The notes: a model not told the origin generated them from the sequence alone. DNA of 64,000 nucleotides from Candidatus Shapirobacteria bacterium (GCA_028704885.1 JAQWEN010000001.1:350679-414678); one strand, 5' to 3'. Positions 16,784 through 60,655 are shown, counted from the stretch's first letter. Numbers and translations are program-made.

Positions 16784-17959
16784 TTAATTATTTTTTCTTA
16801 AAAAGGCTGGAATGTCGTATTCGTCGACAATATCAATTCCGGCGGGAACTTCTTTGTTGTCTAAAAATTCTTTTATTTGATTGTCGCTAAGTTCGTTGGG
16901 TGTTAATAGATTATTATCTGATTTTTGGGTATTTTCTGCTTTAGGCATATTAATTAAAGTTGGTTGAGGTTTTTTTATATGCTGATAAAGACTGGCGCGA
17001 TTAGAGTCAAAACCAGTAGCAATGACAGAAATTTTTACTTTGCCTTTTAGATCATTATCAATGGTGGCACCAAAAATAATATTGGCGTCAGGAGCGGTTC
17101 TTTCAGTAATAGTTCTAGCGGCTTCTTCAATTTCGGCCATGGTAATGTCGGGTCCACCAGTAACATTAATTAAAACTCCTCTAGCACCTTCAATATTGAC
17201 CTCGATAAGGGGAGAATTGACGGCATCTTCGACGGCTTTTTGAACTTTATTTTCACCTTCAGCCTCGCCTACTCCCATTAACGCCGAACCAGCATTGCTC
17301 ATAACAGTCTTAATGTCAGCAAAATCGAGATTGATTAAACCTGGAACGGTAATTAAATCGGCAATAGCTTTAGTGCCCTTACTTAAAACAGAATCGGCAA
17401 TTTTAAAAGCTTCAAGAAGAGTGGCCTTAGTATTAACAACTTCCATGACTTTTTGGTTGGGAATGACAATTAAGGTATCGACATTTTCTCTTAATTGAGA
17501 AATTCCTTCTTCGGCATTGGTCATACGACGAGTACCTTCGAATAAAAATGGTTTAGTGACAACTCCGATAGTTAAAATACCTAATTCTTTTTTAGCAATT
17601 TGAGCAATAAGCGGAGCAGCTCCAGTACAAGTGCCTCCACCCATGCCGCCAGTAATAAAAACCATGTCGGTGCCTTCCAATACTTCTTTAATCCTTTCTT
17701 TGGATTCTTCGGCAGCTTTTTGACCAATTTGAGGATTACCGCCAGCCCCTAAACCCTTAGTTAATTTTTCGCCAATTTGAATTTTAACTGAGGCTAGAGA
17801 ATTTAATAAAGCTTGAGAATCGGTATTAACAGAAATAAAATCGACGCCTTTAATGGAATCTTCTAAAATCATTGAATTAATGGCATTATTACCACCGCCA
17901 CCAACTCCGATGACTTTTATTTTGGCAAATTGTCCAGTGAGAGTTTTAATTAATCCCAT
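16784..17959 (-). CDS. ftsZ: Cell division GTPase FtsZ
   Basis: [26 protein letters not shown] tubulin signature. Confidence 0.95.
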
Positions 17960-17962
17960 ATA

Positions 17963-19210
17963 TTAGGGTAAAAGTGGTTCTAGTAGTTTTTTTATCTTAC
18001 CGATAAATCCACCCATAGAAACTTTTGGAGCTTTAATGCTTGCCCCACTACTCTTTTTGGCATTTTTATTGTGAATCAAAAGACCAATGGTGCTAGTATA
18101 AGCTGGATTAATAATATCATCAACTATACCACCAACTCTTGGAGGGTTGGCAATTCTTAATGGAAGAGGAATTATTTTGTTACAGATTTCTTTGGCATTA
18201 ACAGTCATGGCGCCACCACCAGTTAAAACAATTCCAGCCGGAATTGATTGATGAAAACCACTGGCTTCAATTTGAGAATAAATTAGACTAAAAATTTCTT
18301 CTAAACGAGGTTTAATTATGCCATTTATAGCCATTTGGAGAGAGATTTTTTTCTTATCATCAGAGTGAATATCAAAATGAGATAATTCGATTTCATCCTC
18401 AAATTTTTTGGTTTCAGACAGTTTAGCCAATTTTAATTTTATTCTTTCGGCATCTTCGATGGAAAATCGAAGACCAATGGCAATGTCGTTAGTAACATTA
18501 TTGGCACCAACTGGAATTACAGAAGAAAATACTGGGGAACCTTCAATGAAAATAGTTATATTAGTAATGCTGCCGCCAATATCTACCAAAGCAACACCTA
18601 ATTCTTTTTCAGTTTCGGTTAGAGCGGCGGTGGCAGTACTCAATCCGGCGTAAGTTAAGGATTCAATTTTAATGCCAATGTCTTCAAGACATTTTTTGAG
18701 ATTTTTTAAAGCAGGACTGGAAGCCAAGATTAAATGAGCTTCAACTTCAAGGCGAATACCATTCATGCCGACTGGATCAATAACCCCCTCTTGACCATCA
18801 ACTGTAAATTTTCTTTGAATAATATGAATTATTTCTTTGCCACTGGGAAGAGAAATTGCTTTGGCAGCTTCAGTGACTCGGTTAATATCATTAATATCAA
18901 TTTCACCATTGGGATTACTAATAGCGACAACGCCATGTGAATTAACTGATTCAATATGAGGAGCGGAAATGGAAATATGAGCATTATTTATTTGAAAACC
19001 AGCCATTCTTTCGGCTGATTCAATACTTTGAGTAATAGTGTGGGAAGCCTGTTCCAGATTGATTATTTGACCTTTTCGAAAACCTAGGGAGGGAATTGAA
19101 GAAACGGCCACAATATTAAATTTATCTTCAGCTTCAAAATATTGACCAACTAGGGTAGTGACCTTTGAGGTACCGATATCGATTACATTAATTATTTTTG
19201 TATGTTGCAT
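17963..19210 (-). CDS. ftsA: Cell division protein FtsA
   Basis: Actin-like ATPase: INVIDIGTSKVTTLVG...DIGGSITNITIF...; position upstream of ftsZ. Confidence 0.9.
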   Translation of the reverse strand: MQHTKIINVIDIGTSKVTTLVGQYFEAEDKFNIVAVSSIPSLGFRKGQIINLEQASHTITQSIESAERMAGFQINNAHISISAPHIESVNSHGVVAISNPNGEIDINDINRVTEAAKAISLPSGKEIIHIIQRKFTVDGQEGVIDPVGMNGIRLEVEAHLILASSPALKNLKKCLEDIGIKIESLTYAGLSTATAALTETEKELGVALVDIGGSITNITIFIEGSPVFSSVIPVGANNVTNDIAIGLRFSIEDAERIKLKLAKLSETKKFEDEIELSHFDIHSDDKKKISLQMAINGIIKPRLEEIFSLIYSQIEASGFHQSIPAGIVLTGGGAMTVNAKEICNKIIPLPLRIANPPRVGGIVDDIINPAYTSTIGLLIHNKNAKKSSGASIKAPKVSMGGFIGKIKKLLEPLLP

Positions 19211-19571
19211 ATGGGTGGCTAATACTTAGATCAACTAATTGTAGTTGTTTATTATTAATTTTAGCTGTTTTTAAAATTTCTTGTAAAGAAGTAATTTGCC
19301 AATAAGGATTTTTTTTGGTTGATAAAATAATTTTAATTGGATTGTTACTTTCATTAATTATATAGAATTCGAATTGATTTTGATAATCCCTAGTAGTGCT
19401 TTTAGTGATGTTAATTTGGGCGGTTTTTAATCCGTGTTCTATTTGGAGATAAAAATTATTTTTGGTGGAAGTTGGATCAATTTTGTTTTCAGAAAAATTT
19501 ACTAGTGAATAAACAGAAAGGGATAAAGAAAAAATGAAAATAATAAAAAGAAAAATTTTAAATAATTTCAT
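19188..19571 (-). CDS. Small TM-anchored protein at the FtsQ/DivIB position (minimal FtsQ-like?)
   Basis: 127 aa, N-terminal TM (IFLFIIFIFSLSLSVYSL) then a beta-rich ectodomain; sits between murG and ftsA where ftsQ normally lies. Too short for canonical FtsQ. Confidence 0.3.
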   Translation of the reverse strand: MKLFKIFLFIIFIFSLSLSVYSLVNFSENKIDPTSTKNNFYLQIEHGLKTAQINITKSTTRDYQNQFEFYIINESNNPIKIILSTKKNPYWQITSLQEILKTAKINNKQLQLVDLSISHPYATYKNN

Positions 19572-20679
19572 GAATTAATCTTAAAAATTTTGGATTATCA
19601 GTTACTTTGATAATATTATTTTTGGTTTTAATAGAAATTAATTTATCTATGGAATTTAAAAGATTAATATTATTTAGATTTTTTTCTTCGATTATTTCAG
19701 TAATTTGAGGTAATTTTTCTTTTACCCAAAGGGCATTTAAAAATTGTTCATTTTGTTGACTGACTTTTAAAGGAATTAAAATAGATTTTTTATTTAAAGC
19801 GACGATTTCTTGGCTAGTGTTGGCTCCAGAGCGACTAATAATTAAATTTGATTTATTTAAACTGTAAGCCATATCATTGGCATCTAGATAATCAAAAGCC
19901 TGATAGTTAGAATATTTTTTTTCTAATTTTTTAAATTTGGAAAAATCATTTTTGCCTGTTTGATGAACAATAGAATATTTTTTTAATTGAGGTAAAAGAT
20001 TTTTGATAAATAAATTAATAGTATGAGAACCCTGATTACCGGCGGTAATAAAAATGTCGATTGGATCCCCTATTTTTGATTTTTTAGGATTAAAAAGTTC
20101 TTGACGTAAAAGATTTCCAGTAACAACTATTTTATTTTTGGGAAGGTTATCTTTTTGTTTTTGATTATTAAAAGAAAGAGCAACTATATTGACAAAAAGA
20201 CTATTAATTTTAGTAGTTAAACTGTTAGTTAAAGTTTGTTCATGGGTAATTGAGGGAATTTTTTTAAAAAAACCACTGATAATAATTGGAACAGAAACAT
20301 AGCCACCAAAAGAGACAATAATATCCGGTTTTATTTTTTTAATTAATCCAAAAGCCTTGAAAATTGATTTAGTGGTTTGGGGGAGACCTTTAAGGGTGTT
20401 TGGAAGCCAACGACGGTCTAATTTTCCACAATCAATTGAATAAAAATTGATCCCAATCTTGGGAATAATTTTTGATTCTATGGAAGGAGTATCATCAACA
20501 CTGGAATTATTTTTTCGACCGATATAATTTATTTGCCAAGCAATTTTAGGATCTGTCTTTAATTGTCGAATGAGTTCTAGAGCTGGAGTGAGATGTGTCC
20601 CGGTGATAATAATCGTCTTTTTTGTTTTGACTGTGGTCACTCTTTGAGTATAACAGCATTTTTTGGTTTTTTTCGACAT
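19558..20679 (-). CDS. murG: Lipid II synthase MurG (UDP-GlcNAc:MurNAc-pentapeptide GlcNAc transferase)
   Basis: IIITGTHLTPALELI (G-loop variant), C-terminal ISRSGANTSQEIVALNKKSILIP; first ATG at 20679 (ORF track uses TTG at 20703). Confidence 0.75.
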   Translation of the reverse strand: MSKKTKKCCYTQRVTTVKTKKTIIITGTHLTPALELIRQLKTDPKIAWQINYIGRKNNSSVDDTPSIESKIIPKIGINFYSIDCGKLDRRWLPNTLKGLPQTTKSIFKAFGLIKKIKPDIIVSFGGYVSVPIIISGFFKKIPSITHEQTLTNSLTTKINSLFVNIVALSFNNQKQKDNLPKNKIVVTGNLLRQELFNPKKSKIGDPIDIFITAGNQGSHTINLFIKNLLPQLKKYSIVHQTGKNDFSKFKKLEKKYSNYQAFDYLDANDMAYSLNKSNLIISRSGANTSQEIVALNKKSILIPLKVSQQNEQFLNALWVKEKLPQITEIIEEKNLNNINLLNSIDKLISIKTKNNIIKVTDNPKFLRLIHEII

Positions 20680-21724
20680 TTCTGACCAAACCAATGGCGA
20701 CAAAAAGAGTTAAAAGTGATGATCCCCCGTAGGAAATAAAAGGAAGAGGAACCCCAGTTAATGGAATTAAGGCAGCGATAGCGGAAATATTAATTAAACT
20801 TTGATAGGCAATCCAACAAGCGGTACCGGAAACTAGTAAACTTTGGAATGGATCAACTATTGTTTGAGAAAATTTTAGCAAGTAATTTATTAAAGAAAGA
20901 TATATTAACAGAACGACAAAGAGACCAATAAAACCAATTTCCTCTCCTATAACAGCCAGAATTGAATCGGTTGATATTTTGGGTAAAAATTTATATTTTT
21001 GGTCTGAATTGGCAAAACCTTTACCAAAGAGGCCTCCAGATGAAAGAGTCAAAATAATTTGATTACTGTGATAAGAAGAAGTTTCTTGATTTTGTTGTGG
21101 TTCTAGAAAAGTTTTTAGTCTGGCAGATCGATAAGGAGAAAGAAAAATTAGAGGGATACTTAAAACTAAAATAAGACTAATAATTCCAAACAAAGGCATA
21201 ACGTCGCCACCGGAAAGATAATAAATAGAACCAACAATTGCAGAAATTAGAATGGCGGTACTTAAATTTGGTTCGATGATTATAAGAATAAAAGGAATTC
21301 CTAAGTAAAGAATTAAATTTTTTATATGACGTTTTTCTTCTTTAGAAAAGAGATAAGCAAAATAAATGACAGAGCTTAGTTTTAAAATTTCTGATGGCTG
21401 GATGCTGGTAAAACCTAAATTAAGCCAACGTCTGGCCCCTAAAGCCTGATTGCCAAGTCCGGGAATTAAAACTAATATTAGGCCTAAAATAGAAGCTAGA
21501 TAAAAAATAAATGAAAATTTTTTAATAGTTTCAATTTTAATTTTAGAGGTTATATAAAAAGAAACTAGGCCTAATGCAAGCCAAAATCCCTGTTTTTTAA
21601 TAAAGAAAAATTTATCTCCGATAGTGGAATTGGCCTCACTTAAAGAAGAAATAGAAATAAAAATAAGACCAATAAAAATGAGACTAAAAACTAAAAATAG
21701 TAAGGGCGATTTAGTTTTTTTCAT
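20546..21724 (-). CDS. ftsW: SEDS-family cell division protein FtsW
   Basis: ISTDSILAVIGEEIGFIG, GVPLPFISYGGSS; dcw position upstream of murG. The polar C-terminal tail overlaps the murG 5' end by about 130 nt. Confidence 0.8.
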   Translation of the reverse strand: MKKTKSPLLFLVFSLIFIGLIFISISSLSEANSTIGDKFFFIKKQGFWLALGLVSFYITSKIKIETIKKFSFIFYLASILGLILVLIPGLGNQALGARRWLNLGFTSIQPSEILKLSSVIYFAYLFSKEEKRHIKNLILYLGIPFILIIIEPNLSTAILISAIVGSIYYLSGGDVMPLFGIISLILVLSIPLIFLSPYRSARLKTFLEPQQNQETSSYHSNQIILTLSSGGLFGKGFANSDQKYKFLPKISTDSILAVIGEEIGFIGLFVVLLIYLSLINYLLKFSQTIVDPFQSLLVSGTACWIAYQSLINISAIAALIPLTGVPLPFISYGGSSLLTLFVAIGLVRNVEKNQKMLLYSKSDHSQNKKDDYYHRDTSHSSSRTHSTIKDRS

Positions 21725-22826
21725 TTAAATTTTTAGGAATAGAAATTGGATTAGTGGTTTTGGATAAAGGATAAGAAAAATTTATTTTTTTACAGGTATA
21801 GTTATCTTTATTTTTAGGAGTTATTTCAGAGCCAATAATTTTTTTGTTATTAAATCTAGCTTGTTCGGATTTTATATCGATTTGATAATCAATTTTCAAA
21901 AATTCAGCTAAGTGAAAATAAAAAAGAGGAATAACTTTCTGATCAAGTTCAAGCTTGGTATAAAAAGCAAAGGAAGCAGTTAATCGAGGGTTACATTCTA
22001 GAAGATAAACCTTATTTTTATCAATCAAAAAATCAAGACCAAAAAATCCCTTATAACCAATTTCTTTTATAATTTTTCCAAAATTTTCGGTTATGGTATT
22101 AATTTCTTCGACTATTTTTGGTGGAGCAAAAGATGGCCATTGACGACCAACTGTAGTAAAAGGGTTTTGAGTAAAAGGTTTAATGCCAGTATATTGAAGG
22201 GCAGGAGGACTTTGAATTAGACCAAACTTGGTAAGACTGCAATTGTTTAACAAAGAATAAGAAGATGCAATAAAAGGGCTGTATTTAGTAATAACTTCTG
22301 AAGAAATTTTATCTTTAATTTCATCCCAATTTGAGGCAGAAAAGGTACTGTTTCCGGCCCAACCAAAATGAGTTTGGAGAACTAATTTTTGACCATAAAG
22401 TTGTTGATATTTTAAAAAGTTTTTTTGATTAAAGGTATCTATAGAAAAAGGAATTGTCGGCAGATTGTATTTTTGACAAAGCTTAGCAAATTTAATTTTA
22501 TCTTCTAAAAAGCGATTGATCGGCGAGGGATTACTGACATTTACCCAATTATTTCGTTGACATAAAATGTCAATTTTAGCTGATGGTTTAAATGGGATTA
22601 TGGCTGGAATAAGAGAATTTGAAGTCGATTTTATGTATTCAATTACTTTAGAATTACTAAGAAGTTTACCGCTATTTTTAATTTTTATAGATGGATAATC
22701 AGAGAGATAAATTTTATGAAAATTTTTAAGTTGAGGTAAATTGATATCTAAAAATTTATCAACGACTAAAAAATAGAAGGCAAATTTTGAATTATTGATG
22801 ATATTTTCTAAATTTATCTTTGACAT
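21711..22826 (-). CDS. ATP-grasp carboxylate-amine ligase (not Ddl-like by motif)
   Basis: GLDFLIDKNKVYLLECNPRLTASF is a generic ATP-grasp C-motif (RimK/CarB style E-x-N-P-R) rather than the Ddl E-x-N-T-x-P-G-x-T; a ~150-aa N-domain precedes it. Start overlaps the PLP gene by 13 nt and the end overlaps ftsW by 14 nt. Confidence 0.6.
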   Translation of the reverse strand: MSKINLENIINNSKFAFYFLVVDKFLDINLPQLKNFHKIYLSDYPSIKIKNSGKLLSNSKVIEYIKSTSNSLIPAIIPFKPSAKIDILCQRNNWVNVSNPSPINRFLEDKIKFAKLCQKYNLPTIPFSIDTFNQKNFLKYQQLYGQKLVLQTHFGWAGNSTFSASNWDEIKDKISSEVITKYSPFIASSYSLLNNCSLTKFGLIQSPPALQYTGIKPFTQNPFTTVGRQWPSFAPPKIVEEINTITENFGKIIKEIGYKGFFGLDFLIDKNKVYLLECNPRLTASFAFYTKLELDQKVIPLFYFHLAEFLKIDYQIDIKSEQARFNNKKIIGSEITPKNKDNYTCKKINFSYPLSKTTNPISIPKNLNEKN

Positions 22827-23587
22827 CCGGTGAGTATTATGACTGGATAATCGCCAACATCTAAATTATTTTTTATAGCTTTTTTTAGGCCAGCAAAAGC
22901 CATCGCACCTTCAAGAGAAGTTTTAATGTTGTTTGATTCTAGCGTTTTTTGAGCTTCTAAAATATCTTGATTTTGGATAATTAACTCTGAACCTTTAGAA
23001 TTTTTGACAGTGGAATTAACTTTATTTTTTAAAGGTTGATATTTAACAGTTAAAGCATCAGTTAAGATGGTGTTTTCTGGTTTAACAGCAAAAAATTTGA
23101 CAGATGGACTTAAAGCCTGGGAAATACCTAAAAGAGTGGTGCCGCTACCGACAGGAACAAAAATACTGGTTATTTGAGGTAATTCACTTACTAATTCTTT
23201 GCCAATTTCTTGATAACCAATTAAGGCTGATGGATCAGTTGATTGGCGAAGAAAATAGGCTTTATTTTTTTTGGAAAATTTAATAGCATCACTGATGGGT
23301 TTGTCGGAAATAATTATTTGACAATTATTTTTTTTAATTAAATCAAGTTTGTTTTGGTTGACTTTTGGAGAAAGGAAAACAGTTAAATTAATTTGATTAA
23401 GATGACAAAAATAGACAGCAGAAATAGCAGCGTTGCCAGTACTGGAAATAACAGCACTCTTAAAACCTTGTTTTTTTAAATTTGCTATTTGAAAAATTAA
23501 GCTTCGGTCTTTAGCTGAACCAGTAATATTAAGATCTTCTCTTTTAAAATATATATTTTCTAATTTAATTAAAGGAGTGTTTGCCAT
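22814..23587 (-). CDS. Compact PLP-dependent fold-type II enzyme (CysK/ThrC/Trp-synthase-beta superfamily)
   Basis: TPLIKLENIYFKREDLNITGSAKDRS (PLP-Lys motif), ISSTGNAAISAVYF, and C-terminal SLEGAMAFAGLKK...VIILTGCQR matches the CysK-type C-terminus. At 257 aa it is shorter than canonical CysK/ThrC. Confidence 0.65.
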   Translation of the reverse strand: MANTPLIKLENIYFKREDLNITGSAKDRSLIFQIANLKKQGFKSAVISSTGNAAISAVYFCHLNQINLTVFLSPKVNQNKLDLIKKNNCQIIISDKPISDAIKFSKKNKAYFLRQSTDPSALIGYQEIGKELVSELPQITSIFVPVGSGTTLLGISQALSPSVKFFAVKPENTILTDALTVKYQPLKNKVNSTVKNSKGSELIIQNQDILEAQKTLESNNIKTSLEGAMAFAGLKKAIKNNLDVGDYPVIILTGCQR

Positions 23588-23627
23588 ATAATAGCTTAAT
23601 TATACTAGTTATTAATTTTAATAAAAC

Positions 23628-23786
23628 ATGAACGAAAAAGTTATTTGTCCGGATTGTCAAACAGAAATTGAATTAATTGAAGCCACAATGGTTGGAGATA
23701 TTATTGAATGTCCAGAATGTGGGACCGAAGTAGAAATTTTATCTCTAAATCCCCTAAAATATCGGGAATTAATTGAGGAAAAGTAA
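23628..23786 (+). CDS. Unannotated 52-aa zinc-ribbon protein resembling LysW/ArgW amino-group carrier proteins
   Basis: ATG 23628, TAA 23784-23786. Translation: MNEKVICPDCQTEIELIEATMVGDIIECPECGTEVEILSLNPLKYRELIEEK. The pseudo-repeat CPxC..E.EL....G.IIECPECG.E.EI..L.PL mirrors the LysW pattern as I recall it (Thermus CPECGAELRLENPELGELVVCEDCGAELEVVGLDPLRLE), but it ends EEK rather than EDWGE. It falls below the ORF-track length cutoff. Confidence 0.45.
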   Translation: MNEKVICPDCQTEIELIEATMVGDIIECPECGTEVEILSLNPLKYRELIEEK

Positions 23787-24323
23787 TCGATAAAAACCTT
23801 GATGGATAAATTTTTTATCAGTAAGATCGGCTTGGCCATATTTTACTCCCCTACCAGAAAAAGAACTATCAACATAATTGATAATATTACCCTGTTTTTC
23901 GATGATAAATAAAACATGGTGACCATTTTTTTGGCGGACTAAATCACCGGTTTGAATGTTGTTTAAATCGGTTATTTCCTTGGAAATTGGAGCGGAGGTA
24001 AGCATGTCAGCGGAAGTTTTTCGGGGATTAAGGTTAGTTTCAAAATAAAAATTTAACAATTGGCAAACAAGACCAGAACAATCGATTCCAAGATGATTCT
24101 TTTTTTGAAAGTTATAAAATTCTTGATTGGTTAATTTAACCAAATCTATTTTTTGTTTTTGAGCAAGTCTAATAGTTTCAGTAGCAATTTGTCGATAATT
24201 GCCTTTACCACCAAGAAATTGTTCCTTAATTATTTTGCCGTCTTTAAGGATGTTTTTACTATAGGGTAAGCCAATATAATATTGAATTTCCTGTTTTAAT
24301 AAATCTAATTTATTCCCAGCCAT
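23769..24323 (-). CDS. NlpC/P60-family cysteine peptidase (papain-like Cys/His)
   Basis: GIDCSGLVCQLL is the catalytic Cys motif DCSGLV; GHHVLFII supplies the His. First ATG at 24323; the ORF track extends to a TTG at 24389. Confidence 0.55.
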   Translation of the reverse strand: MAGNKLDLLKQEIQYYIGLPYSKNILKDGKIIKEQFLGGKGNYRQIATETIRLAQKQKIDLVKLTNQEFYNFQKKNHLGIDCSGLVCQLLNFYFETNLNPRKTSADMLTSAPISKEITDLNNIQTGDLVRQKNGHHVLFIIEKQGNIINYVDSSFSGRGVKYGQADLTDKKFIHQGFYRLLFLN

Positions 24324-25339
24324 AATCCAAAAATTGCTAATATAATCCCAGCTAACCAAGCGCGCATAACTATCTTTGGTTCTTCCCAACCAATACTTTG
24401 AAGAGTTAAATGAAGAGGGGCAGCGGGAAATATTTTTCTTTTTAAATATTTTTTACTAAGTAATTGAATGCCACTAGACATACCTTCGATAATGAAAGGA
24501 GCACCGACAATTATTAAGGGGACTATTTTTCCTAAAAGAAGAGCAATAACAGCGAAGGTGGCTCCAAAAGAAAGGGAACCAACATCACCAAGCCAAATTC
24601 TGGCTGGATAGACATTAAAATATAAGAAAGCGATTAGGGCGCCAATCCAAAGAGCTAAAAATGAGGAAATAACAGTATCTAGAGAATTATTGGCTAAAAT
24701 CCAAAATGCAAATAAAGCAATCATTAGTAATCCACTAGAAAGTCCATCTAGACCGTCAGTAATATTAAAGAAATTAGCAAAACCAGTAATAATAATAGTA
24801 GAAATGGGAATGAAGAAAAAACTCAGATGAACAGCTCCGAAAAATGGTAGATAAATAAATTCTATTTTTAGTTGAAAATAAATCATTAAAGAAATAATTA
24901 ACGAAATTATTATTTGTAAAATGAATTTATGGATCATTCTTAATCCAAAAAAACCAGTTCTTTTAAAGCCAAAGAATTTATTAATATCATCGTAAAGACC
25001 TAATAATCCGAAACTAATAAAGGTAAAGAATAGAATAAATAATTCTTGTTCTATGTTGTAATTAGAGGAAATAAAAATTCGAGAGAATTTGAGAATAGGG
25101 AAAAGAATTATAAACATGAGGCAAACAGAGACGATGATTAACAGGCCTCCACCGACAGGAGTTCCTGATTTTTGATTGTGAAATTTATCAAAAATAGTGG
25201 TTCTTTTATTTTGAAAATCAGTGGTTTTTTGAACTTGTCGTTGGAATTTTAGTTTATAAAGAAGATTAATAAAAGGAACAACTAAAATACTAGAGATTAA
25301 GAAGGAAAAAAGGACTAGACCGAGATATAAGTGCATCAT
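24305..25339 (-). CDS. mraY: Phospho-N-acetylmuramoyl-pentapeptide transferase MraY
   Basis: NFFNITDGLDGLSSG, DDINKFFGFKR, multi-TM. Confidence 0.9.
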   Translation of the reverse strand: MMHLYLGLVLFSFLISSILVVPFINLLYKLKFQRQVQKTTDFQNKRTTIFDKFHNQKSGTPVGGGLLIIVSVCLMFIILFPILKFSRIFISSNYNIEQELFILFFTFISFGLLGLYDDINKFFGFKRTGFFGLRMIHKFILQIIISLIISLMIYFQLKIEFIYLPFFGAVHLSFFFIPISTIIITGFANFFNITDGLDGLSSGLLMIALFAFWILANNSLDTVISSFLALWIGALIAFLYFNVYPARIWLGDVGSLSFGATFAVIALLLGKIVPLIIVGAPFIIEGMSSGIQLLSKKYLKRKIFPAAPLHLTLQSIGWEEPKIVMRAWLAGIILAIFGLWLGIN

Positions 25340-25343
25340 AAAT

Positions 25344-26672
25344 TTAGGTTTTTATATACTCTATGTTAGCACCTAAAGAACAAAGACGTTCAGCTAATTT
25401 TTCATATCCTCTTTCAATATATTCAACACCGTCAATAATTGAAATGCCGGGTGCTGTAAGAGCGGCAACAGTGGCGGAAGCTCCAGCTCGAAGGTCGTTA
25501 ATGACAAAATTGGCTGGTTTGAGCATGGTGGGTCCATAAATTTTTACACCGTGGAAATATTCTGGATTATCACTGGCTTGGTTAAATTGATAGTAACTAT
25601 CAGGATCGTCAATGATTGGATTAAAAAATTTAAATTTGCTGCCCATTTTTTTAAGATTTTCAATGTGTTGAAATCTGTTTGGAAAAACTGTTTCAATAAG
25701 AGAACTACAACCGACAGTTTGGGTTAAAAGTACAGTAAAAATTGCCTGCCAGTCAGTCATAAATCCTGGTTCTGGGCCAGTTTCAATATCAATACTGGTT
25801 AACGGCTTTACCCATTGAATACAAATTTCATCATTACCAATTCTGACTTCGGCCCCCATTTTTTTTATAGTATCTAAAAAGGTTTTGACTATATCTGGTT
25901 TGATTCTTAAGATGCAGATAGAACCTTTGGTTGCCAAAGCGGCACAAGCAAAAGTAACAATTTCATTTCGATCACAAATTACACTGTGTTCGGTTCCATT
26001 TAGAGAAGAAACTCCCTGAATAGTAATTCTTTTTTCATCGGTTGGGTCTCTTTGAATTTTAGCCCCCATTTTATTTAACATTAAAATAAGATCATCTATT
26101 TCTGGTTCAAGAGCGGCATTATCAATAATGGTTTCACCTTCAGCTAGAACGGCGGTCATAATAATTACTTCGGTGACAGTATGAGATGGTTTGGTAAAAG
26201 TATAATGAGTACCAATAATTTTGTCGGTATTAAAGGTAATTTTATGATCTGTTTCGGAAACTTTAATATTCATTTGAGAGAAACAATCAAAAAGACGATC
26301 AAGAGGTCGGTTGCCTAATTTGTCTCCTCCTGGAGACGGAATGGTGGCGGTGCCAGTTCTGGCGAGAAGTGGAGCCACAAAAATAAAAGAAGTTCTAGAT
26401 TTTTCACCAGTACCACTGGGAACAATTGAATTAGTTATTTCTGGAGTAATTAATTCAAGACAATGCTCCCCTGTTTGTTTTACTTGACAGCCGAGACTTT
26501 TAGCAATACTGGTAGTTATTTTTACATCGGATATCTGAGGAACATTATTTAACAAGACGGTTTTGTCGGTCAACATTGAAGCAATTACTTGTTTGAAACT
26601 AGCGTTCTTGGCACCTCTAATAGAAACTTCGCCTTTAAGTTGTTTTCCGCCGGTTATTATGTATCTGGACAT
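25344..26672 (-). CDS. murA: UDP-N-acetylglucosamine 1-carboxyvinyltransferase MurA
   Basis: ITGGKQLKGEVSIRGAKNASFKQVIASML...LNNVPQISDV; 442 aa. Confidence 0.9.
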   Translation of the reverse strand: MSRYIITGGKQLKGEVSIRGAKNASFKQVIASMLTDKTVLLNNVPQISDVKITTSIAKSLGCQVKQTGEHCLELITPEITNSIVPSGTGEKSRTSFIFVAPLLARTGTATIPSPGGDKLGNRPLDRLFDCFSQMNIKVSETDHKITFNTDKIIGTHYTFTKPSHTVTEVIIMTAVLAEGETIIDNAALEPEIDDLILMLNKMGAKIQRDPTDEKRITIQGVSSLNGTEHSVICDRNEIVTFACAALATKGSICILRIKPDIVKTFLDTIKKMGAEVRIGNDEICIQWVKPLTSIDIETGPEPGFMTDWQAIFTVLLTQTVGCSSLIETVFPNRFQHIENLKKMGSKFKFFNPIIDDPDSYYQFNQASDNPEYFHGVKIYGPTMLKPANFVINDLRAGASATVAALTAPGISIIDGVEYIERGYEKLAERLCSLGANIEYIKT

Positions 26673-26675
26673 AGT

Positions 26676-28049
26676 TTATTTTAAAGAATTAATAATAGAT
26701 TTGACAATCTTGTTTGCCTCAAAACCGCCAGAACTCATATTTATTAAAATGTCACCACTTTTAAGATTTTGTTTGTAAAAATTAACAATATCTTCGTCTA
26801 TGGGAATATAAATTAAATTTTGACCAATGATATCTCTAAAATCTTTGGCAGTACTGCGATTATTTTTGTCGATAATATTATTATAGTTTAATTTAGATAA
26901 AACAATTTCAGAAGCTAAAGAGAAAGCATTTTTAAAATCTTTTAAACTTTCTTTATGTTGAATAAAAGAGGCATGAGGTTGATATAAAACTTTGATATTT
27001 CTTTTGGGAAAATGAGATTTAATGGCTGATAATGTAGATTTGATTCTGTTTGAAGATTGGGCAAAATCATCAAAAATCATGATATTTTTTTTATCAATAA
27101 TTTTTTCGATTCGACGTTTAATGCCTTTAAAAGTTAAAACAGCCTTTTTAATATCTGTTTGATTTAGATTAAGACTGTCGGCCATAGCAACTGCGGCTAA
27201 AATATTTTCAAAATTTAGTTGGCCGATTAATTTGGTTTTAATTTGAATAGTATTTCTGGGAGTTCTAATCTCTAAAAGAGAATAATTCTTTTTTATTTTG
27301 ATATTTTTCAGATAATAATCGGAATTGGATGAATTATAAGTAATTATTTTCGATTTGGAATAAAGACTTAATTCTTTGGTTTGAAAGCCTTTGGAATTAA
27401 TAAGTAAAAATCCTTTTTCGGGAATATTAGTTATTAATTTTTTAAAAGCATTAAAATTAGCAATTTCGGTTGAATAGGAATCTTTGTGCTCCCAATCAGC
27501 ACTGGTTAATAATAAAAATCTGACTGGATAATACAAGAATTTGGCTTGATCGTCGAGTCCATGAATTGATTCATCAGCTTCGACAATAGACCAATCTGAG
27601 GAAGAAATATTGGTAGCCGGAAAATGGTTAATAGCTTCGCCGCCAAACATATAGTTTGGATTGAGATTTGATTGACAAAAAATCCAAGAAATTAAAGAAG
27701 TAATAGTTGTTTTACCATAAGTTCCGGCAATTAAAACAGAATTTTCTTTAATTAAGTTTTCGGCAATAAATTGACTTGCTGAAATATATTTTATATTTAA
27801 TTTTTTAATTTGGTCGAATTCTTCTTTGGTATTTTTAAAATTAGAAAATGAAGAACCGATTATGGCTAAGTCGATAGTGGAGTCAATTTTGGAAGAATTT
27901 ATTTTAATATCAGTTTTTTTAAGAAGAGTACTGACAGGGGGATATATTTTTTCCTGATCAGAACCGGTAACTATATGACCTTCTTTTTTAAGAGCAACAG
28001 CCAAGGAGGCCGTCATAGTTCCAGCTATTCCTAAAATATGGATGTGCAT
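26676..28049 (-). CDS. MurC/Mpl-family Mur ligase; N-terminus most similar to murein-peptide ligase Mpl
   Basis: MHIHILGIAGTMTASLAVALKKEGHIVTGSDQEKIYPPVSTLL closely parallels E. coli Mpl MRIHILGICGTFMGGLAMLARQLGHEVTGSDANVYPPMSTLL (from memory); P-loop IAGTYGKTT; EADES. Confidence 0.7.
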   Translation of the reverse strand: MHIHILGIAGTMTASLAVALKKEGHIVTGSDQEKIYPPVSTLLKKTDIKINSSKIDSTIDLAIIGSSFSNFKNTKEEFDQIKKLNIKYISASQFIAENLIKENSVLIAGTYGKTTITSLISWIFCQSNLNPNYMFGGEAINHFPATNISSSDWSIVEADESIHGLDDQAKFLYYPVRFLLLTSADWEHKDSYSTEIANFNAFKKLITNIPEKGFLLINSKGFQTKELSLYSKSKIITYNSSNSDYYLKNIKIKKNYSLLEIRTPRNTIQIKTKLIGQLNFENILAAVAMADSLNLNQTDIKKAVLTFKGIKRRIEKIIDKKNIMIFDDFAQSSNRIKSTLSAIKSHFPKRNIKVLYQPHASFIQHKESLKDFKNAFSLASEIVLSKLNYNNIIDKNNRSTAKDFRDIIGQNLIYIPIDEDIVNFYKQNLKSGDILINMSSGGFEANKIVKSIINSLK

Positions 28050-28076
28050 AATAAATTAATTTTTAATTTGAAATTT

Positions 28077-28670
28077 TTAAACATATGGAATCCAATTACT
28101 ATCTTTAAAATATTCAAAACCAGGCATATTTCTTTTGTAATAACCTGACTCTTGAGAAAAACGACCAAGATAACAATATTTTAAGCCTAATCCTTGACTG
28201 TCGATTATAACTTGGAGAACTAATCTGATTGGTAAATTACTGTTGGCAAAAGCTGGATTGTAAAAAACATAAGCAATATGGCTAATTTCTTTTGAAAAAT
28301 AACACAAAGAATAGGCAATAATTTTATTTTGATCGTCTTTCCAAATATATAGATAATTAAAAATATGATTTCTAAAAACGTTTTTTACGGAACTGACTGG
28401 AAAATCCCAAGCAAGGGTTTTTGTCCAACTAATAATTTCTTTTTGAATTTTAAAATTATAATCAAAATCTTTTAGAGCTATTTTTTCAAAAGTAAAGTTT
28501 TCGGTTTTTCTTAAAATTCGGCGATTTTCTGAACTTAAATTGAAATTTTCTAAATTAGAACGACAACTGGTTTGAAAATAAAATGAATTTTTATCGTTTC
28601 TTTGGGGTAAAAGTCCGTTTTTATAATTTTCCTCAATACTATTAGTATTTTTTAAATTGAATTGAGTCAT
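28077..28670 (-). CDS. Ate1/Bpt-like aminoacyl-tRNA-protein transferase homolog (ATE_C-like), tentative
   Basis: SHIAYVFYNPAF...NLPIRLVLQVI and YCYLGRFSQESGYYKRNMPGFEYF parallel recalled Ate1 C-domain segments (SSVYFFYDPDY...[37 protein letters not shown]). No CGYC N-motif is present. Confidence 0.35.
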   Translation of the reverse strand: MTQFNLKNTNSIEENYKNGLLPQRNDKNSFYFQTSCRSNLENFNLSSENRRILRKTENFTFEKIALKDFDYNFKIQKEIISWTKTLAWDFPVSSVKNVFRNHIFNYLYIWKDDQNKIIAYSLCYFSKEISHIAYVFYNPAFANSNLPIRLVLQVIIDSQGLGLKYCYLGRFSQESGYYKRNMPGFEYFKDSNWIPYV

Positions 28671-28672
28671 TT

Positions 28673-29974
28673 TTATTTTATTTTTCTAAGTCTAAAAGCG
28701 GTTCTGAAAGCTTCTGCTTCAGACCAAGGATATTCGGTGTGACCATGAAGAATAGTGGTCTCATGGCCTTTACCACAAGCAATAACAACATCATTTGGTT
28801 GACTTAGTTTAATAGCTAAGTTGAAAGCATCTTGACGATTGGGGATATTAAAATAAACAAATTTATTTTTTGATAATTCAATTATTTTTTGAATTTGTTT
28901 TTTAGTTTTGATTTCTTGATAATCAATCAATTCTGATTTTTTAGGATCTATGCCACCAATTATCTGTTTGTTAATATTTTCTATTTTTTCATTTCTAGTG
29001 TCATCAGAGGTAATTAAGGCAATATTAGCTAATTTAGAAACAATTTCACCCATTTTAGGACGTTTGGATTGATCTCGTCCACCAGTGGCTCCAAAAATAA
29101 CAATAAGATTACCTTTGTTAATTTTTTTAAGTGATGAAAGTGACGATTCTAGGGCAAAAGGAGTATGGGCAAAATCTATAATAGTTTTAAATTTAAAATC
29201 ATTTGAAATTTCTTCTCGACGACCTTTGGTTTCGGGAAAATGCTCGATGGCTTTTTGGACAAAAGATGAATCAATTTTTAATTTTTGACAAACGGCTATG
29301 GCTAGAAGGATATTATAAATTTGATATTCGTAATTACTATCGGTGGTAAATTTCTGATCATTAACTTCAAAACTAAGAAGATTTTGATCTAATTTAATTT
29401 TTTTGGCTTGATAGTCTGAATTTTCTTTAATACTGAATGTTTTAAAAGGAACTTTAATTTGTTTTTTAATAATTTCGAAAGATTGATCATCTTTATTTAA
29501 AACGGCATTTTTTGATAAAGAAAATAATTTGGCTTTGGTATTAATGTAATTATTTAAATTTTTGTGATAATCAAGATGTTCATGGGAAGTGTTGGTAATT
29601 CCAGAAATTTCAAAATTACATCCAGAAAAACGATACTGATCAAGAGCATGAGAAGTAACCTCACAAACAACATGAGTTATTCCAGCCTTAACCATTTCAG
29701 CAAGAATTTTTTGAAGTAAAGATGGGTCTGGGGTGGTAGTGTGAAAACCAGTGTCGATTTCCCGATCTTCAATTTTGGCACCAATAGTAGTAATTAAGCC
29801 TGTTTTTAGACCAGATTGCTTTAAAATTTCATGAATTAAGGTACAGGTGGTAGTTTTACCATCGGTTCCAGTAATTCCAATAAGAGTCAATTTTCTTGAA
29901 GGAAATCCGTAGTAAAAGTTATAAAAAATACTTTTAGGTAGATGAATTCCAATATTTTTAAGTTTTTGAATCAT
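28673..29974 (-). CDS. murE: UDP-MurNAc-tripeptide synthetase MurE-like Mur ligase lacking the usual N-terminal UDP-binding domain
   Basis: FYYGFPSRKLTLIGITGTDGKTTT (P-loop), IIDFAHTP (D-x-A-H-x-P), IVIFGATGGRDQSKRPKMG...ALITSDDTRNE, ACGKGHE; only about 25 aa precede the P-loop. Confidence 0.7.
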   Translation of the reverse strand: MIQKLKNIGIHLPKSIFYNFYYGFPSRKLTLIGITGTDGKTTTCTLIHEILKQSGLKTGLITTIGAKIEDREIDTGFHTTTPDPSLLQKILAEMVKAGITHVVCEVTSHALDQYRFSGCNFEISGITNTSHEHLDYHKNLNNYINTKAKLFSLSKNAVLNKDDQSFEIIKKQIKVPFKTFSIKENSDYQAKKIKLDQNLLSFEVNDQKFTTDSNYEYQIYNILLAIAVCQKLKIDSSFVQKAIEHFPETKGRREEISNDFKFKTIIDFAHTPFALESSLSSLKKINKGNLIVIFGATGGRDQSKRPKMGEIVSKLANIALITSDDTRNEKIENINKQIIGGIDPKKSELIDYQEIKTKKQIQKIIELSKNKFVYFNIPNRQDAFNLAIKLSQPNDVVIACGKGHETTILHGHTEYPWSEAEAFRTAFRLRKIK

Positions 29975-29986
29975 TTCGGTGTTTAA

Positions 29987-31636: not shown

Positions 31637-31637
31637 T

Positions 31638-31895
31638 TTAATTTTGAAGATTAAGAGTCTCTTTTAAATTTATATAGTTTTTTTGGTTAATTAAGGTTTG
31701 GATTTGACTTAAAGAAGTTAGAGACGTAAATTGTTTTTTTAATTCTTGATTGGCAATTTTTAAGGATTGAAGACTACTTTGGTTTTTATTAATTGAATTA
31801 TTTTGATTAATAATTTCACTGGAATAATAAAAAGAAAAAAGGATCTGGCAGGCAATTAAAATAAAGAGAATTAGAAAAAATGGTTTATTTAACAT
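31638..31895 (-). CDS. FtsL-like small bitopic cell-division protein
   Basis: 85 aa, N-terminal TM then a coiled-coil/polar tail; located between rsmH and ftsI. Confidence 0.4.
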   Translation of the reverse strand: MLNKPFFLILFILIACQILFSFYYSSEIINQNNSINKNQSSLQSLKIANQELKKQFTSLTSLSQIQTLINQKNYINLKETLNLQN

Positions 31896-31896
31896 C

Positions 31897-37989: not shown

Positions 37990-37991
37990 TT

Positions 37992-42152: not shown

Positions 42153-42153
42153 T

Positions 42154-43365: not shown

Positions 43366-43383
43366 GTTTTTTTAAATTATAAA

Positions 43384-46261: not shown

Positions 46262-46262
46262 A

Positions 46263-46856: not shown

Positions 46857-46874
46857 ACAATTTATTATATATAT

Positions 46875-46903
46875 TAGTGCTCTGGTTCGCTAGTGCTCTG
46901 GTT
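46875..46903. repeat. Tandem direct repeat TAGTGCTCTGGTT(cgc)TAGTGCTCTGGTT in the 49-bp intergenic spacer
   Basis: Read directly. On the minus strand it sits just upstream of an ATATATATAAT -10-like element and the acetyltransferase ATG. Confidence 0.6.
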
Positions 46904-46905
46904 GA

Positions 46906-57030: not shown

Positions 57031-57033
57031 ATT

Positions 57034-58329: not shown

Positions 58330-58350
58330 ATGAAATAATATAACACATTA

Positions 58351-58390: not shown

Positions 58391-58410
58391 AGGGGTTAGA
58401 GAGAAGGTTT

Positions 58411-60591: not shown

Positions 60592-60655
60592 TAGGATAAG
60601 AAATTATAGAACATAATTGCTTGATGGATATTAGTTATGTGCTATAAGTAATTAA

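Follow-up and report, generated by a model that had tools for sequence, protein, structure and literature searches.

Introduction

Small carrier proteins that act through their C-terminus are known from bacterial and archaeal biosynthetic systems. In the LysW/ArgW system of Thermus, Sulfolobus and Thermococcus, the cargo, which can naturally be glutamate, is carried on the γ-carboxylate of the C-terminal Glu of LysW, and is processed by LysX/ArgX, LysZ, LysY, LysJ and LysK. In the CysO–CysM–Mec+ system of Mycobacterium, the C-terminus of the carrier enters a fold-type II PLP enzyme and a dedicated protease frees the product. Joining of carboxylates to amines is known from ATP-grasp ligases such as BesA, MfnD, PylC and Aslfm, which acylate primary amines or Lys ε-amines; Aslfm, a D-aspartate ligase, acts on the Lys of the peptidoglycan precursor and is encoded beside a racemase gene. 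We know of no PLP-dependent glutamate racemase. A murD-linked, ATP-dependent and one-way L to D route for D-Glu has been described as MurD2/MurL in Xanthomonas and Micromonospora (PMC8788868).

Here, we analysed a 64,000-nucleotide stretch of a Candidatus Shapirobacteria genome (the window), in which a LysW-like gene, a PLP enzyme gene and an ATP-grasp ligase gene are embedded in the dcw cell-wall cluster. The initial annotation had called this arrangement undescribed and, in agreement, we found no account of such a module in the searchable literature.

Results

The small ORF encodes a LysW-fold protein that is not a canonical LysW

As initially annotated, three ORFs lie between mraY and ftsW. 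Two of them, for the ATP-grasp ligase and the PLP enzyme, are on the minus strand, and the small ORF diverges from them; the position and sequence reported for the 52-aa ORF were exact (Table 1). This ORF, initially noted as missed by the ORF track, is not new to public databases, where it is already annotated as 'lysine biosynthesis protein LysW'. The protein scored 47.6 bits (E 1.2e-12) on PF21344 (Zn_ribbon_LysW; gathering cut-off 27), and its best PDB sequence matches were LysW of Thermococcus and Thermus (E 1e-7 to 2e-6). When its AF2 model (pLDDT 83.5) was used as a Foldseek query, the top six matches were LysW without exception (TM 0.69–0.76). Across 75 orthologues, entropy was 15.7, 6.6 and 39.1 at codon positions 1, 2 and 3, and codon differences with respect to the window gene comprised 864 synonymous and 373 non-synonymous changes. 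Given these matches and the variation concentrated at the third codon position, the small ORF is a genuine gene and not a chance reading frame.

The resemblance to LysW in fold and sequence signature was therefore confirmed, but the proposed membership of the LysW amino-group-carrier family was not. The suggested HMM comparison gave a divided answer, since the cut-off of PF21344 was passed whereas the score on TIGR01206 (38.9 bits) stayed below the curated equivalog cut-off of 53.2; the score on NF041070 (35.0 bits) was likewise below its cut-off of 75. The canonical tail type, EDWGE with a terminal Glu, is missing and the protein ends in ...RELIEEK, nor is it accompanied by LysX/Z/Y/J/K partners. 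The 52-aa protein thus has the LysW fold and a four-Cys zinc ribbon, but is not a canonical LysW.

Table 1. Features of the module and its flanks, in positions of the window.
Feature	Position	Strand	Description
ftsW	20546–21724	−	ORF and synteny; flank
ATP-grasp ligase	21711–22826	−	371 aa; biotin-carboxylase/PurK/L-amino-acid-ligase structural group
Compact fold-type II PLP enzyme	22814–23587	−	257 aa; PF00291, 137.7 bits
Divergent intergenic region	23588–23627	.	40 bp separating the PLP and LysW-like genes
LysW-fold zinc-ribbon protein	23628–23786	+	52 aa; net charge about −9; ends in ...RELIEEK
Cytoplasmic NlpC/P60-like papain-fold protein	23769–24323/24389	−	Likely start ATG at 24323; PF00877, 23.1 bits at GA 23
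mraY	24305–25339	−	ORF and synteny; flank

Alignment of the tails of 139 distinct homologues from several phyla showed that the last residue is Lys in all of them, that it is preceded by Glu in 135, and that the third residue from the end is always Glu or Asp (139/139). The distance between the last CxxC and the C-terminus is also fixed, at 25–26 residues in 137 of these 139 proteins. The EEK ending was found in 118 of the 120 protein-database homologues listed, the two exceptions being an extension past EEK (EEKW...) or an ending in ...KEE. We regard the invariant C-terminal Lys as the putative functional end of a putative carrier, and we would place its covalent use by the module only a little short of even. 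In the AF2 model only about the last four residues are free, as compared with 8–10 in LysW, and the reach of the tail into active sites is perhaps limited.

Companion enzymes of the LysW-like protein

The PLP enzyme carries its Schiff-base Lys within NITGSAKDR, followed by an Asn loop (ISSTGNAA) and a QSTDP motif, and residues K26, S49, G51 and N52 are invariant across lineages. PDB profile searches returned Thr dehydratases, Ser/Asp racemases, Thr synthase and CysK with E-values from 1e-16 to 1e-11, the best matches being Ser/Asp racemases and dehydratases, and the score was below the cut-off of every NCBIfam equivalog, including that of threonine synthase. By sequence comparison, we assign the enzyme to a separate subfamily at a nearly equal distance from Thr dehydratase, Ser/Asp racemase, Thr synthase and CysK. 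Because it is equally distant from the β-replacement enzymes CysK, SbnA and ThrC, racemisation is one option only. Threonine synthase, the public label of its orthologues, was rejected: the best models reached 96 bits against 358 and TIGR00260 gave 30.9 against 167, and the phosphate-binding N-P-x-R motif of threonine synthase is not kept, the sequence reading QSTDP-x-A without the Arg.

The 3′ end of the PLP gene overlaps the start of the ATP-grasp gene by 13 nt, in line with the translational coupling initially noted. On its other side, read along the minus strand, a −10-like TATAAT precedes the start of the PLP gene by 7–13 nt (weak consensus scan), and the spacing of about 40 bp between the PLP and LysW-like genes is common to most Shapirobacteria loci.

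The fold and the E-x-N Mg/ATP-binding motif place the ligase in the ATP-grasp superfamily (PF02655, ATP-grasp_3). It had been described as RimK/LysX-like, but structural comparison puts it in the group of biotin carboxylase and L-amino-acid ligases, by which its identity as a LysX/ArgX (RimK-type) partner ligase was rejected. Identity with Ddl was rejected as well, as the protein scored 15.8 bits against a cut-off of 245 on TIGR01205 and belongs to another structural class. The recommended placement among LysX, RimK and Ddl thus yielded an assignment to neither side.

A fourth conserved gene of the module, overlooked in the initial annotation, encodes an NlpC/P60-like protein and sits between mraY and the small ORF, with which it shares an 18-nt overlap of the two 3′ ends. 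Its product is a weak sequence match (23.1 bits), whose residues align with the catalytic residues of Spr/MepS at a PDB E-value of only about 0.07–0.1. The catalytic Cys (GIDCSG), the His (G-x-H; GHH in the window protein) and the third residue (D/H/E) are conserved among these proteins, and a gene at the same position is present in all long Shapirobacteria loci. Clear NlpC/P60 domains were found in the corresponding genes of three other loci, L090 (81 bits, NCBIfam), L172 (74 bits, Pfam) and L173, the L090 protein being barely similar to that of the window. Signal peptides were absent in every lineage checked, and the window protein has no hydrophobic N-terminus. We see this protein as a candidate for the unloading or hydrolysis step of the module.

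The module is conserved in several phyla, usually beside murD

In 80 species-level genomes, every sufficiently long locus showed the order mraW–pbp–murE–ATE-like–murC–(murA)–mraY–NlpC–LysW-like–PALP–ATP-grasp–ftsW. An independent comparison of 80 metagenomic loci placed the LysW-like gene beside the PLP gene in 66 of 68 testable loci; the ATP-grasp gene followed the PLP gene in 61 of 61, and MurD was the immediate neighbour of the LysW-like gene in 36 of 49. This neighbour passed the MurD equivalog cut-off (TIGR01087) in L085, L090 and L140. The conservation of the trio in relatives and its tie to peptidoglycan genes, both raised in the initial annotation, are borne out by these two sets. In L107, L167, L170 and L173, the LysW-like gene shares its strand with murD and the PLP gene, and in the first three with the ATP-grasp gene as well; the short L173 contig showed no ATP-grasp gene. 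One or two PLP–ATP-grasp fusions were also found. Among about 170 loci, the neighbours of the LysW-like gene were NlpC/P60, MurD, mraY, ftsW and other cell-envelope genes, and none was LysZ/Y/J/K (or ArgB/C/D/E-like).

The module was also detected in Gottesmanbacteria, CPR2, Dormibacteria, Chloroflexota and Thermoleophilia, whether as part of a dcw cluster or elsewhere in the genome. Its presence in the last three groups is at odds with its initial framing as an oddity of tiny CPR genomes. The trio and the NlpC/P60 gene recur in Patescibacteria, Dormibacteria, Chloroflexota and Thermoleophilia, with murD directly beside them in most lineages.

In canonical dcw clusters, mraY is followed by murD. 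HMMs built from the murE-like and murC-like orthologues detected no third Mur ligase (murD), neither in the window nor in any of 84 Shapirobacteria-type loci related to it. Shapirobacteria therefore represent a variant of the module without murD in the cluster, and murD may be encoded elsewhere or its step may have been taken over. As murD is missing from the cluster of this lineage, the link to MurD is an extrapolation for the window. The class II sister clusters also have no murD.

All 43 module-associated MurDs keep the catalytic and α-carboxylate-binding residues (K115, N138, H183, K198, T321/S and K348). At position 415, where Ser contacts the second carboxylate group in complexes with D-Glu mimetics (PMC3527612), they have F, Y, N or G instead, as compared with the canonical MurDs of two species, E. 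coli and S. agalactiae, as control. They also lack the MurD2 determinants Glu197 and Arg358, and have Asn and Lys there instead. The murE-like ligase of the clade has an invariant DDTR motif, whose Arg binds a distal carboxylate in DAP-type MurE, and its N-terminal domain is missing; in the window, the murC-like ligase matches Mpl as well, with 192 bits.

Discussion

Since the LysW-like gene travels with PLP, ATP-grasp and NlpC/P60 genes, and usually with MurD, the locus points to an undescribed step in the synthesis of the D-glutamate position of peptidoglycan. The window carries a variant of a conserved cytoplasmic module for peptidoglycan precursors that is shared by several phyla. The best explanation overall, to which we give somewhat less than even confidence, is that the four proteins of this module run a carrier cycle; a link of the module to MurD and the position-2 step is somewhat more probable than not. 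In our hypothesis, the cycle would deliver the position-2 residue (D-Glu) to MurD or display it for this enzyme. The acidic LysW-like carrier would work with reversed polarity with respect to LysW, the carboxyl of the cargo being attached to the ε-amino group of the C-terminal Lys. The ATP-grasp ligase would activate a carboxylate, most plausibly the γ-carboxylate of L-Glu, and ligate it to this Lys, and the PLP enzyme would then act on the free α-amino/α-carboxyl end of the tethered residue, most plausibly by L to D racemisation. The D-residue would pass to MurD, after release or still tethered, and the NlpC/P60 protein would cut the γ-D-glutamyl-lysine isopeptide and so regenerate the carrier. 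Overall, the residue at position 2 of the stem peptide would be supplied in one direction only, at the expense of ATP. In this specific form, with racemisation of carrier-bound Glu, the cycle is doubtful. A simple racemase would leave the carrier unnecessary.

The logic of loading, modification and release could be parallel to that of LysW, because an ATP-grasp ligase, a PLP enzyme and a hydrolase accompany both. Both systems also share a small acidic four-Cys zinc ribbon (TM 0.69–0.76) and a conserved C-terminal tail of fixed length. They differ in that the E-E-K tail ends in Lys and is about five residues shorter than the Glu-terminated tail of LysW, the ATP-grasp ligase is of the biotin-carboxylase/L-amino-acid-ligase group and not RimK/LysX, the PLP enzyme is of fold type II whereas LysJ is a fold-I aminotransferase, and the hydrolase is NlpC/P60 whereas LysK is an M20 enzyme. 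Moreover, the module has no kinase or reductase, and its partner genes are MurD and cell-wall genes instead of those for lysine or arginine biosynthesis. CysO–CysM–Mec+ likewise combines a small carrier, a fold-II PLP enzyme and a releasing protease, but CysO has a ubiquitin-like fold with a GG-thiocarboxylate end, serves sulfur transfer, and has neither an ATP-grasp ligase nor a link to the cell wall. BesA, MfnD, PylC and Aslfm provide a precedent for coupling an alkyl amine with the carboxylate of an amino acid, although none uses a protein-borne Lys as acceptor and sequence identity to the module ligase is about 10–13% (in a comparison without a structure of Aslfm). MurD2/MurL resembles the proposed module as an alternative, ATP-consuming and one-way source of D-Glu for position 2 encoded beside a murD-type gene, but operates without a carrier protein, PLP enzyme, ATP-grasp ligase or NlpC/P60 protein.

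The LysW-like protein might instead be a non-covalent subunit or regulator, acting as a zinc-ribbon adaptor or a substrate-mimicking tail for MurD or the ATP-grasp ligase, while the PLP and ATP-grasp enzymes work on free metabolites and make, for example, D-Glu, a γ-glutamyl dipeptide or another position-2 amino acid. The shortness of the free tail, the frequent location of the small gene on the opposite strand, the coupling of the PLP and ATP-grasp genes to each other and not to the small gene, and the likeness of the ligase to enzymes that ligate small molecules would all agree with this, and the ...E-E-K end might resemble the acyl-Glu-Lys end of the stem tripeptide. We nevertheless find it unlikely, because a terminal Lys that is invariant and a tail length that is fixed across phyla typify a reactive terminus such as that of LysW, and the LysW fold is seen among solved structures only in carrier proteins. 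For DNA binding, the protein is too acidic. The initial annotation proposed an amino-group carrier of the LysW/LysX type that makes or activates a non-canonical diamino acid for the stem peptide. In this reading, the residue would be lanthionine- or DAP-like, e.g. lysinoalanine formed by PLP-dependent β-replacement on the terminal Lys, and MurE would incorporate it at position 3. This would fit the LysW fold, the KDR and Asn-loop motifs of CysK/ThrC/SbnA type in the PLP enzyme, and the DDTR Arg kept by a murE-like ligase devoid of its N-terminal domain. We consider it quite improbable, as the conserved neighbour across phyla is MurD and not MurE, the ligase is not of LysX/RimK type, the terminal residue is Lys and not Glu, and no LysZ/Y/J/K genes occur in the loci; in addition, once the modified Lys had been cleaved off, a ligase would be required for reloading, and none is evident.

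Within a dcw cluster, a PLP enzyme beside an ATP-grasp ligase recalls the pair of Alr and Ddl, and ddl and murF are missing from the 64-kb window, so that the two enzymes could be taken for counterparts of alanine racemase and of the ligase that makes D-Ala-D-Ala, or for makers of another D-amino-acid dipeptide. Such a replacement, also put forward in the initial annotation, is unlikely because sister clusters of the Shapirobacteria variant that have the same cassette keep canonical ddl and murF: L106 and L139 carry a Ddl of the canonical kind (E 2.5e-60 against DdlB of E. coli), and L106 and L094 a MurF-like ligase. For the sister lineages this substitution is largely refuted and, with a ligase that scores so far below Ddl and is structurally nearer biotin carboxylase and L-amino-acid ligases, and with MurD rather than MurF as the partner of the module, we give it hardly any credence in general. 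Recycling of peptidoglycan peptides offers another reading, in which the NlpC/P60 protein would act like YkfC, a γ-D-Glu-Lys/DAP endopeptidase, on imported muropeptides and recover fragments that contain D-Glu; the remaining enzymes would then process these anew for MurD or for a ligase of the Mpl type. The cytoplasmic location of the NlpC/P60 protein and the Mpl score of the murC-like ligase are consistent with it, as is the dependence of CPR organisms on hosts. Yet the module is also present in free-living members of Dormibacteria and Chloroflexota that have genomes of at least 2 Mb, and recycling leaves unexplained both the Lys-terminated LysW-fold protein and the coupling of the PLP enzyme to the ATP-grasp ligase; it has, in our view, a low probability.

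Returning to the carrier cycle, its fullest form would make the LysW-fold protein a 'carboxyl-group carrier protein' with a Lys ε-amine tether, at the core of an ATP-driven, PLP-dependent route to peptidoglycan D-Glu in Patescibacteria, Dormibacterota, Chloroflexota and some Actinomycetota, in which Shapirobacteria may dispense with MurD. We put this forward as a speculative and rather unlikely proposal. If true, it would be the first 'carboxyl-group carrier protein' and would add a third route to the D-glutamate of peptidoglycan.

A conserved cytoplasmic module tied to peptidoglycan genes

Our analysis shows a five-component cytoplasmic module: the LysW-like zinc ribbon, the fold-II PLP enzyme, the ATP-grasp protein, a cytoplasmic NlpC/P60-like protein and usually MurD. 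The module is linked to peptidoglycan genes, in most lineages to MurD as well, and its LysW-fold protein ends in an invariant lysine on a tail of fixed length. All coordinates assigned to the cassette ORFs in the initial annotation were correct (Table). The LysW-like and NlpC/P60-like genes converge, their 3' ends overlapping by 18 nt (23769-23786), an arrangement kept in many loci, and a promoter scan of the 40-bp divergent region gave only weak consensus matches.

Table. Features of the window discussed in this part; order refers to minus-strand transcription from mraY to ftsW
Feature	Position	Strand	Order	Remarks
murE-type ligase	28673-29974	-		433 aa; passes TIGR01085 cut-off
ATE_C/Bpt-like (Fem-like fold) protein	28077-28670	-		197 aa; weak similarity to arginyl/leucyl-tRNA-protein transferases
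murC-like ligase	26676-28049	-		MurC equivalog 240.7 vs cut-off 335; Mpl 192 bits
mraY	24305-25339	-	First	
NlpC/P60-like ORF	23769-24389	-	Second	Likely ATG at 24323
LysW-like ORF	23628-23786	+		52 aa; 40 bp from PLP start
PLP enzyme	22814-23587	-	Third	257 aa
ATP-grasp	21711-22826	-	Fourth	371 aa; start overlaps PLP stop by 13 nt
ftsW	20546-21724	-	Last	

The LysW-like protein has the LysW fold and a different tail

The 52-aa ORF (MNEKVICPDCQTEIELIEATMVGDIIECPECGTEVEILSLNPLKYRELIEEK), proposed from the sequence alone to be a LysW-type gene, proved to be a real gene with a LysW fold, which public databases already call 'lysine biosynthesis protein LysW'. It matches PF21344 (Zn_ribbon_LysW) with 47.6 bits (E 1.2e-12; gathering cut-off 27), and in the PDB its closest sequences are LysW from Thermococcus (5k2m_E, E 1.2e-7) and Thermus (3wwl_A). 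In the AF2 model (pLDDT 83.5), a beta-hairpin (residues 34-48) follows the zinc ribbon and only the last ~4 residues form a free tail; LysW chains make up all six of the model's best Foldseek matches among PDB entries (TM 0.69-0.76). Across 75 orthologues, third-position variation dominates (summed entropy of 15.7, 6.6 and 39.1 at codon positions 1, 2 and 3), and the codon differences from the window gene comprise 864 synonymous and 373 non-synonymous changes.

Membership in the canonical LysW family did not hold. The protein stays below the curated cut-offs (TIGR01206, 38.9 vs 53.2 bits; NF041070, 35 vs 75) and ends in K-Y-R-E-L-I-E-E-K, not in EDWGE. Among the matches listed, EEK is the end of 118 of 120 homologues; the other two are longer gene calls running past EEK, one of them among the calls reading EEKW, which resembles a stop codon translated as W. 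Each of the 139 distinct LysW-like sequences gathered across all loci ends in K; the second to last residue is E in 135 and the third to last is always E or D, and the last CxxC lies 25-26 residues from the C-terminus in 137. The last 45 residues of the homologues have a median net charge of -9. When 1.84 billion representative proteins were searched with a profile, short LysW-like proteins often ended in [LIV]EEEK, DEEK or QEEK, and within the top 150 such tails were at least as frequent as EDWGE. This search also brought up many proteins with two or three LysW-like zinc ribbons in tandem (100-210 aa; P0245-P0249, P0255, P0258, P0261 and others) and a few long ones (500-1100 aa) with 6-9 repeats, all with basic or otherwise different tails.

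Partner enzymes

The ATP-grasp protein had been described as RimK/LysX-like. We found instead that it matches PF02655 (35.8 bits), NF005096 'PRK06524 biotin carboxylase' (110 bits, far under the model cut-off) and, weakly, the tyramine-glutamate ligase MfnD; the best PDB match of the family profile was carbamoyl-phosphate synthetase (E 0.0045). From these matches and a confident AF2 model (pLDDT 91.7), we conclude that it is neither LysX/RimK-like nor Ddl-like. Its sequence is 100% identical to that of a protein from a Candidatus Shapirobacteria bacterium, which identifies the organism of the window.

The PLP enzyme is a clear PALP-domain protein (137.7 bits) with the Schiff-base lysine in GSAKDR, the asparagine loop ISSTGNAA and a QSTDP motif. 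It reached no equivalog cut-off of the NCBIfam-type models. Judged by its similarity to threonine dehydratases and serine/aspartate racemases (E 1e-16 to 1e-13) and to threonine synthases and CysK/SbnA (E 1e-12 to 1e-9), it is about equidistant from these two groups. The PLP and ATP-grasp parts occur as a single ORF in a 72%-GC organism (L107, 2235-5153; 972 aa) and in a Shapirobacteria MAG (L036, 1775-3655; 626 aa); the latter may be an assembly or frameshift artefact, since the PLP C-terminus is missing.

In the NlpC/P60-like protein, which aligns to the catalytic residues of Spr/MepS, the GIDCSG and G-x-H motifs and the D/H/E third residue are all kept. A search for a hydrophobic N-terminus in these proteins found none, which makes a role as a secreted cell-separation hydrolase unlikely. 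The public names of module orthologues ('lysine biosynthesis protein LysW', 'threonine synthase', 'threonine dehydratase' and 'biotin carboxylase') are probably wrong.

MurD is the usual neighbour of the module

Synteny of the trio is conserved in the clade and well beyond it. Taking one genome per species, the clade scan yielded 80 loci, and every locus that was long enough has the order mraW - PBP - murE-like - ATE/Fem-like - murC-like - (murA) - mraY - NlpC-like - LysW-like (opposite strand) - PLP - ATP-grasp - ftsW - murG - ftsA - ftsZ, with ATP-grasp identity as low as 41%. Outside this clade, EEEK-type LysW-like proteins occur in Gottesmanbacteria (L089 and L091), CPR2 (L090) and a further locus, L085. 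The Gottesmanbacteria loci lie outside the dcw cluster and encode an NlpC/P60-like protein, a 466-479-aa Mur ligase, the LysW-like protein (opposite strand), PLP and ATP-grasp; the CPR2 locus has the same arrangement and location. L085 lies inside the cluster (mraY - PaaX-like - NlpC-like - Mur ligase - LysW-like - PLP - ATP-grasp - ftsW - murG). By its TIGR01087 scores (cut-off 212), the Mur ligase neighbouring the module is MurD in L090 (251 bits), L085 (261) and L140 (219). It was rejected as an orthologue of the murE-like or murC-like ligase of the window (21-29% identity, E no better than ~1e-10).

A metagenome scan seeded with the PLP family added 80 further loci, annotated with the clade HMMs. 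The LysW-like and PLP genes are adjacent in 66 of the 68 testable loci, ATP-grasp follows PLP in all 61, and 36 of 49 loci have MurD as the immediate neighbour (21/22 at high GC, 15/27 at low GC). The high-GC loci (65-74% GC) come, by their source names, from Candidatus Dormibacteria, Chloroflexota and Thermoleophilia. On a 2.14-Mb contig (L172), NlpC/P60 - MurD - LysW-like - PLP - ATP-grasp are encoded in that order with clear Pfam matches; a Thermoleophilia contig (L173) has the first four, with no ATP-grasp within its 7.6 kb. The LysW-like gene is on its neighbours' strand in L107, L167, L170 and L173. Two loci (L102 and L104) show a variant order, LysW-like, PLP, a ~500-bp gap, ATP-grasp and NlpC-like, with MurD not adjacent, a QIIEEEK tail and a longer hairpin.

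Overall, two architectures can be distinguished. Class I is (NlpC/P60) - MurD - LysW-like - PLP - ATP-grasp, in which the LysW-like gene and the 3' end of murD share 30-50 nt. Class II, comprising the window, the Shapirobacteria loci, L094, L106, L124, L139 and L161, is mraY - NlpC - LysW-like - PLP - ATP-grasp - ftsW, without murD.

The Shapirobacteria cluster has no murD

The dcw cluster of the window (16784-32769) has no murD, murF, ddl or murB. HMMs built from the clade's two Mur ligases revealed no further Mur ligase in the window and 84 related loci, and murD, murF and ddl are therefore absent from this cluster. Queries with E. coli MurD, MurF and DdlB recovered only the ligases already identified, plus a canonical ddl within the cluster of L106 (E 2.5e-60 to DdlB) and L139 (1.7e-56); a MurI query of ~2.6 Mb of loci gave no match and was uninformative. 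The ligase encoded upstream of mraY in the class II relatives resembles MurF (TIGR01143, 260-275 bits), with murF-like genes in L094 and L106, and murD is absent from the sister clusters L094, L106, L139 and L161. In these clusters the usual enzyme of the MurD step is missing, not that of the D-Ala-D-Ala branch.

The murE-type ligase of the window lacks the N-terminal UDP-binding domain, as its TIGR01085 match starts at model position 75, and its DNPR-equivalent motif is DDTR, invariant across the clade. The MurF-like ligases of L094 and L106 likewise start late, at model position 63. The murC-like ligase may act on a substrate other than plain L-Ala. Between the two ligases, all long Shapirobacteria loci keep the ATE/Fem-like gene, whose product could be a tRNA-dependent stem-peptide or cross-bridge transferase. 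Elsewhere in the window, a DUF4012 protein (35375-37330) and a long run of glycosyltransferase, sugar-nucleotide and polysaccharide-export genes (37351-52496 and 54831-62904; Bac_transf, NTP_transferase, GT1, GT2, UDP-glucose dehydrogenase, epimerase, Polysacc_synt and a sulfatase-family protein) are ordinary cell-envelope context.

Module-linked MurDs differ at Ser415 and two other positions

All 43 module MurDs keep the catalytic and alpha-carboxylate-binding residues K115, N138, H183, K198, T321 (S in one) and K348 (E. coli numbering). Consistent changes are Asp182 to Asn, Leu416 to Phe and Ser415 to F, Y, N or G. D-Glu mimetics present two carboxylates to E. coli MurD: the first is bound by Lys348 and Thr321, the second by the Ser415 hydroxyl and amide (PMC3527612). 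With only two canonical controls (E. coli and S. agalactiae), the replacement of Ser415 is a hint that the incoming residue is unlike free D-Glu at its side-chain end. The MurD2 determinants Glu197 and Arg358 (PMC8788868) are absent, and module MurDs were rejected as MurD2-type enzymes.

A carrier-based route to position 2 and its alternatives

We consider it probable that the module is linked to the position-2 step, the addition of D-Glu to the stem peptide by MurD. More tentatively, with the case for and against nearly balanced, the terminal lysine of the LysW-like protein would be used covalently. The protein would then act as a carrier whose lysine epsilon-amine holds a carboxyl group of a cargo loaded by the ATP-grasp enzyme; BesA, MfnD and PylC are precedents for ATP-grasp coupling of an amino-acid carboxylate to a primary or lysine amine. 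The most economical cargo would be glutamate, which would be attached via its gamma-carboxylate, with the PLP enzyme inverting it to D-Glu; MurD would consume the product, and the NlpC/P60 enzyme would cut the gamma-D-glutamyl-lysine bond to regenerate the carrier. Specificity for gamma-D-glutamyl-Lys/DAP bonds characterises much of the NlpC/P60 family. The alpha-amine must be free for the PLP enzyme to act, which fits a cargo tethered through its carboxylate and not the canonical LysW mode, where the cargo amine is blocked. We rate this specific racemisation cycle as rather unlikely. MurD2/MurL, a murD-linked, ATP-consuming, one-way alternative route to D-Glu (PMC8788868), makes a solution of this kind plausible.

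Among other readings, the zinc ribbon may be a non-covalent adaptor or regulator of enzymes that act on free metabolites, which we regard as unlikely. The diamino acid for MurE proposed in the initial annotation is harder still to credit: the clade MurE, with its invariant DDTR motif and missing N-domain, speaks for it, but the module associates with MurD. Muropeptide salvage seems similarly improbable. The other role suggested there, replacement of Alr/Ddl, we reject as highly improbable because sister clusters carry canonical ddl (L106, L139) and murF-like genes (L094, L106), which largely refutes it.

Relation to known systems and implications

We classify the module as a variant of carrier-protein-assisted amino-acid modification. 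It shares its fold, and possibly its logic, with the LysW carrier systems, but departs from them in tail, cut-off, partner ligase and neighbourhood; it resembles MurD2/MurL only in presumed purpose. Our literature search, which covered sources other than subscription-only literature, found no paper describing the module, nor any combining LysW with peptidoglycan and ATP-grasp, with MurD or with a C-terminal lysine; on LysW in Patescibacteria, and on amino-group carrier proteins and D-glutamate, it brought up only unrelated work. Knowledge of the cytoplasmic part of peptidoglycan synthesis is considered essentially complete; to our knowledge, MurD2/MurL is the only alternative on record for the D-Glu step, and we know of no protein-borne intermediates in precursor synthesis.

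A reversed-polarity carrier and D-Glu route, if confirmed, would be a categorically new system and a new way to make or hand over a D-amino acid, taking LysW-type carriers beyond amino-acid biosynthesis into cell-wall synthesis, with the attachment chemistry reversed. The module defines a five-protein system that is directly testable and suited to reconstitution in E. coli, and the new route would correct the widespread mis-annotation as 'lysine biosynthesis protein LysW' and 'threonine synthase'. These names could lead to an overestimate of what CPR genomes can make by way of amino acids, since they suggest a lysine or threonine biosynthesis that these genomes probably lack. Finally, such a route would explain the source of the position-2 residue in several poorly studied phyla.
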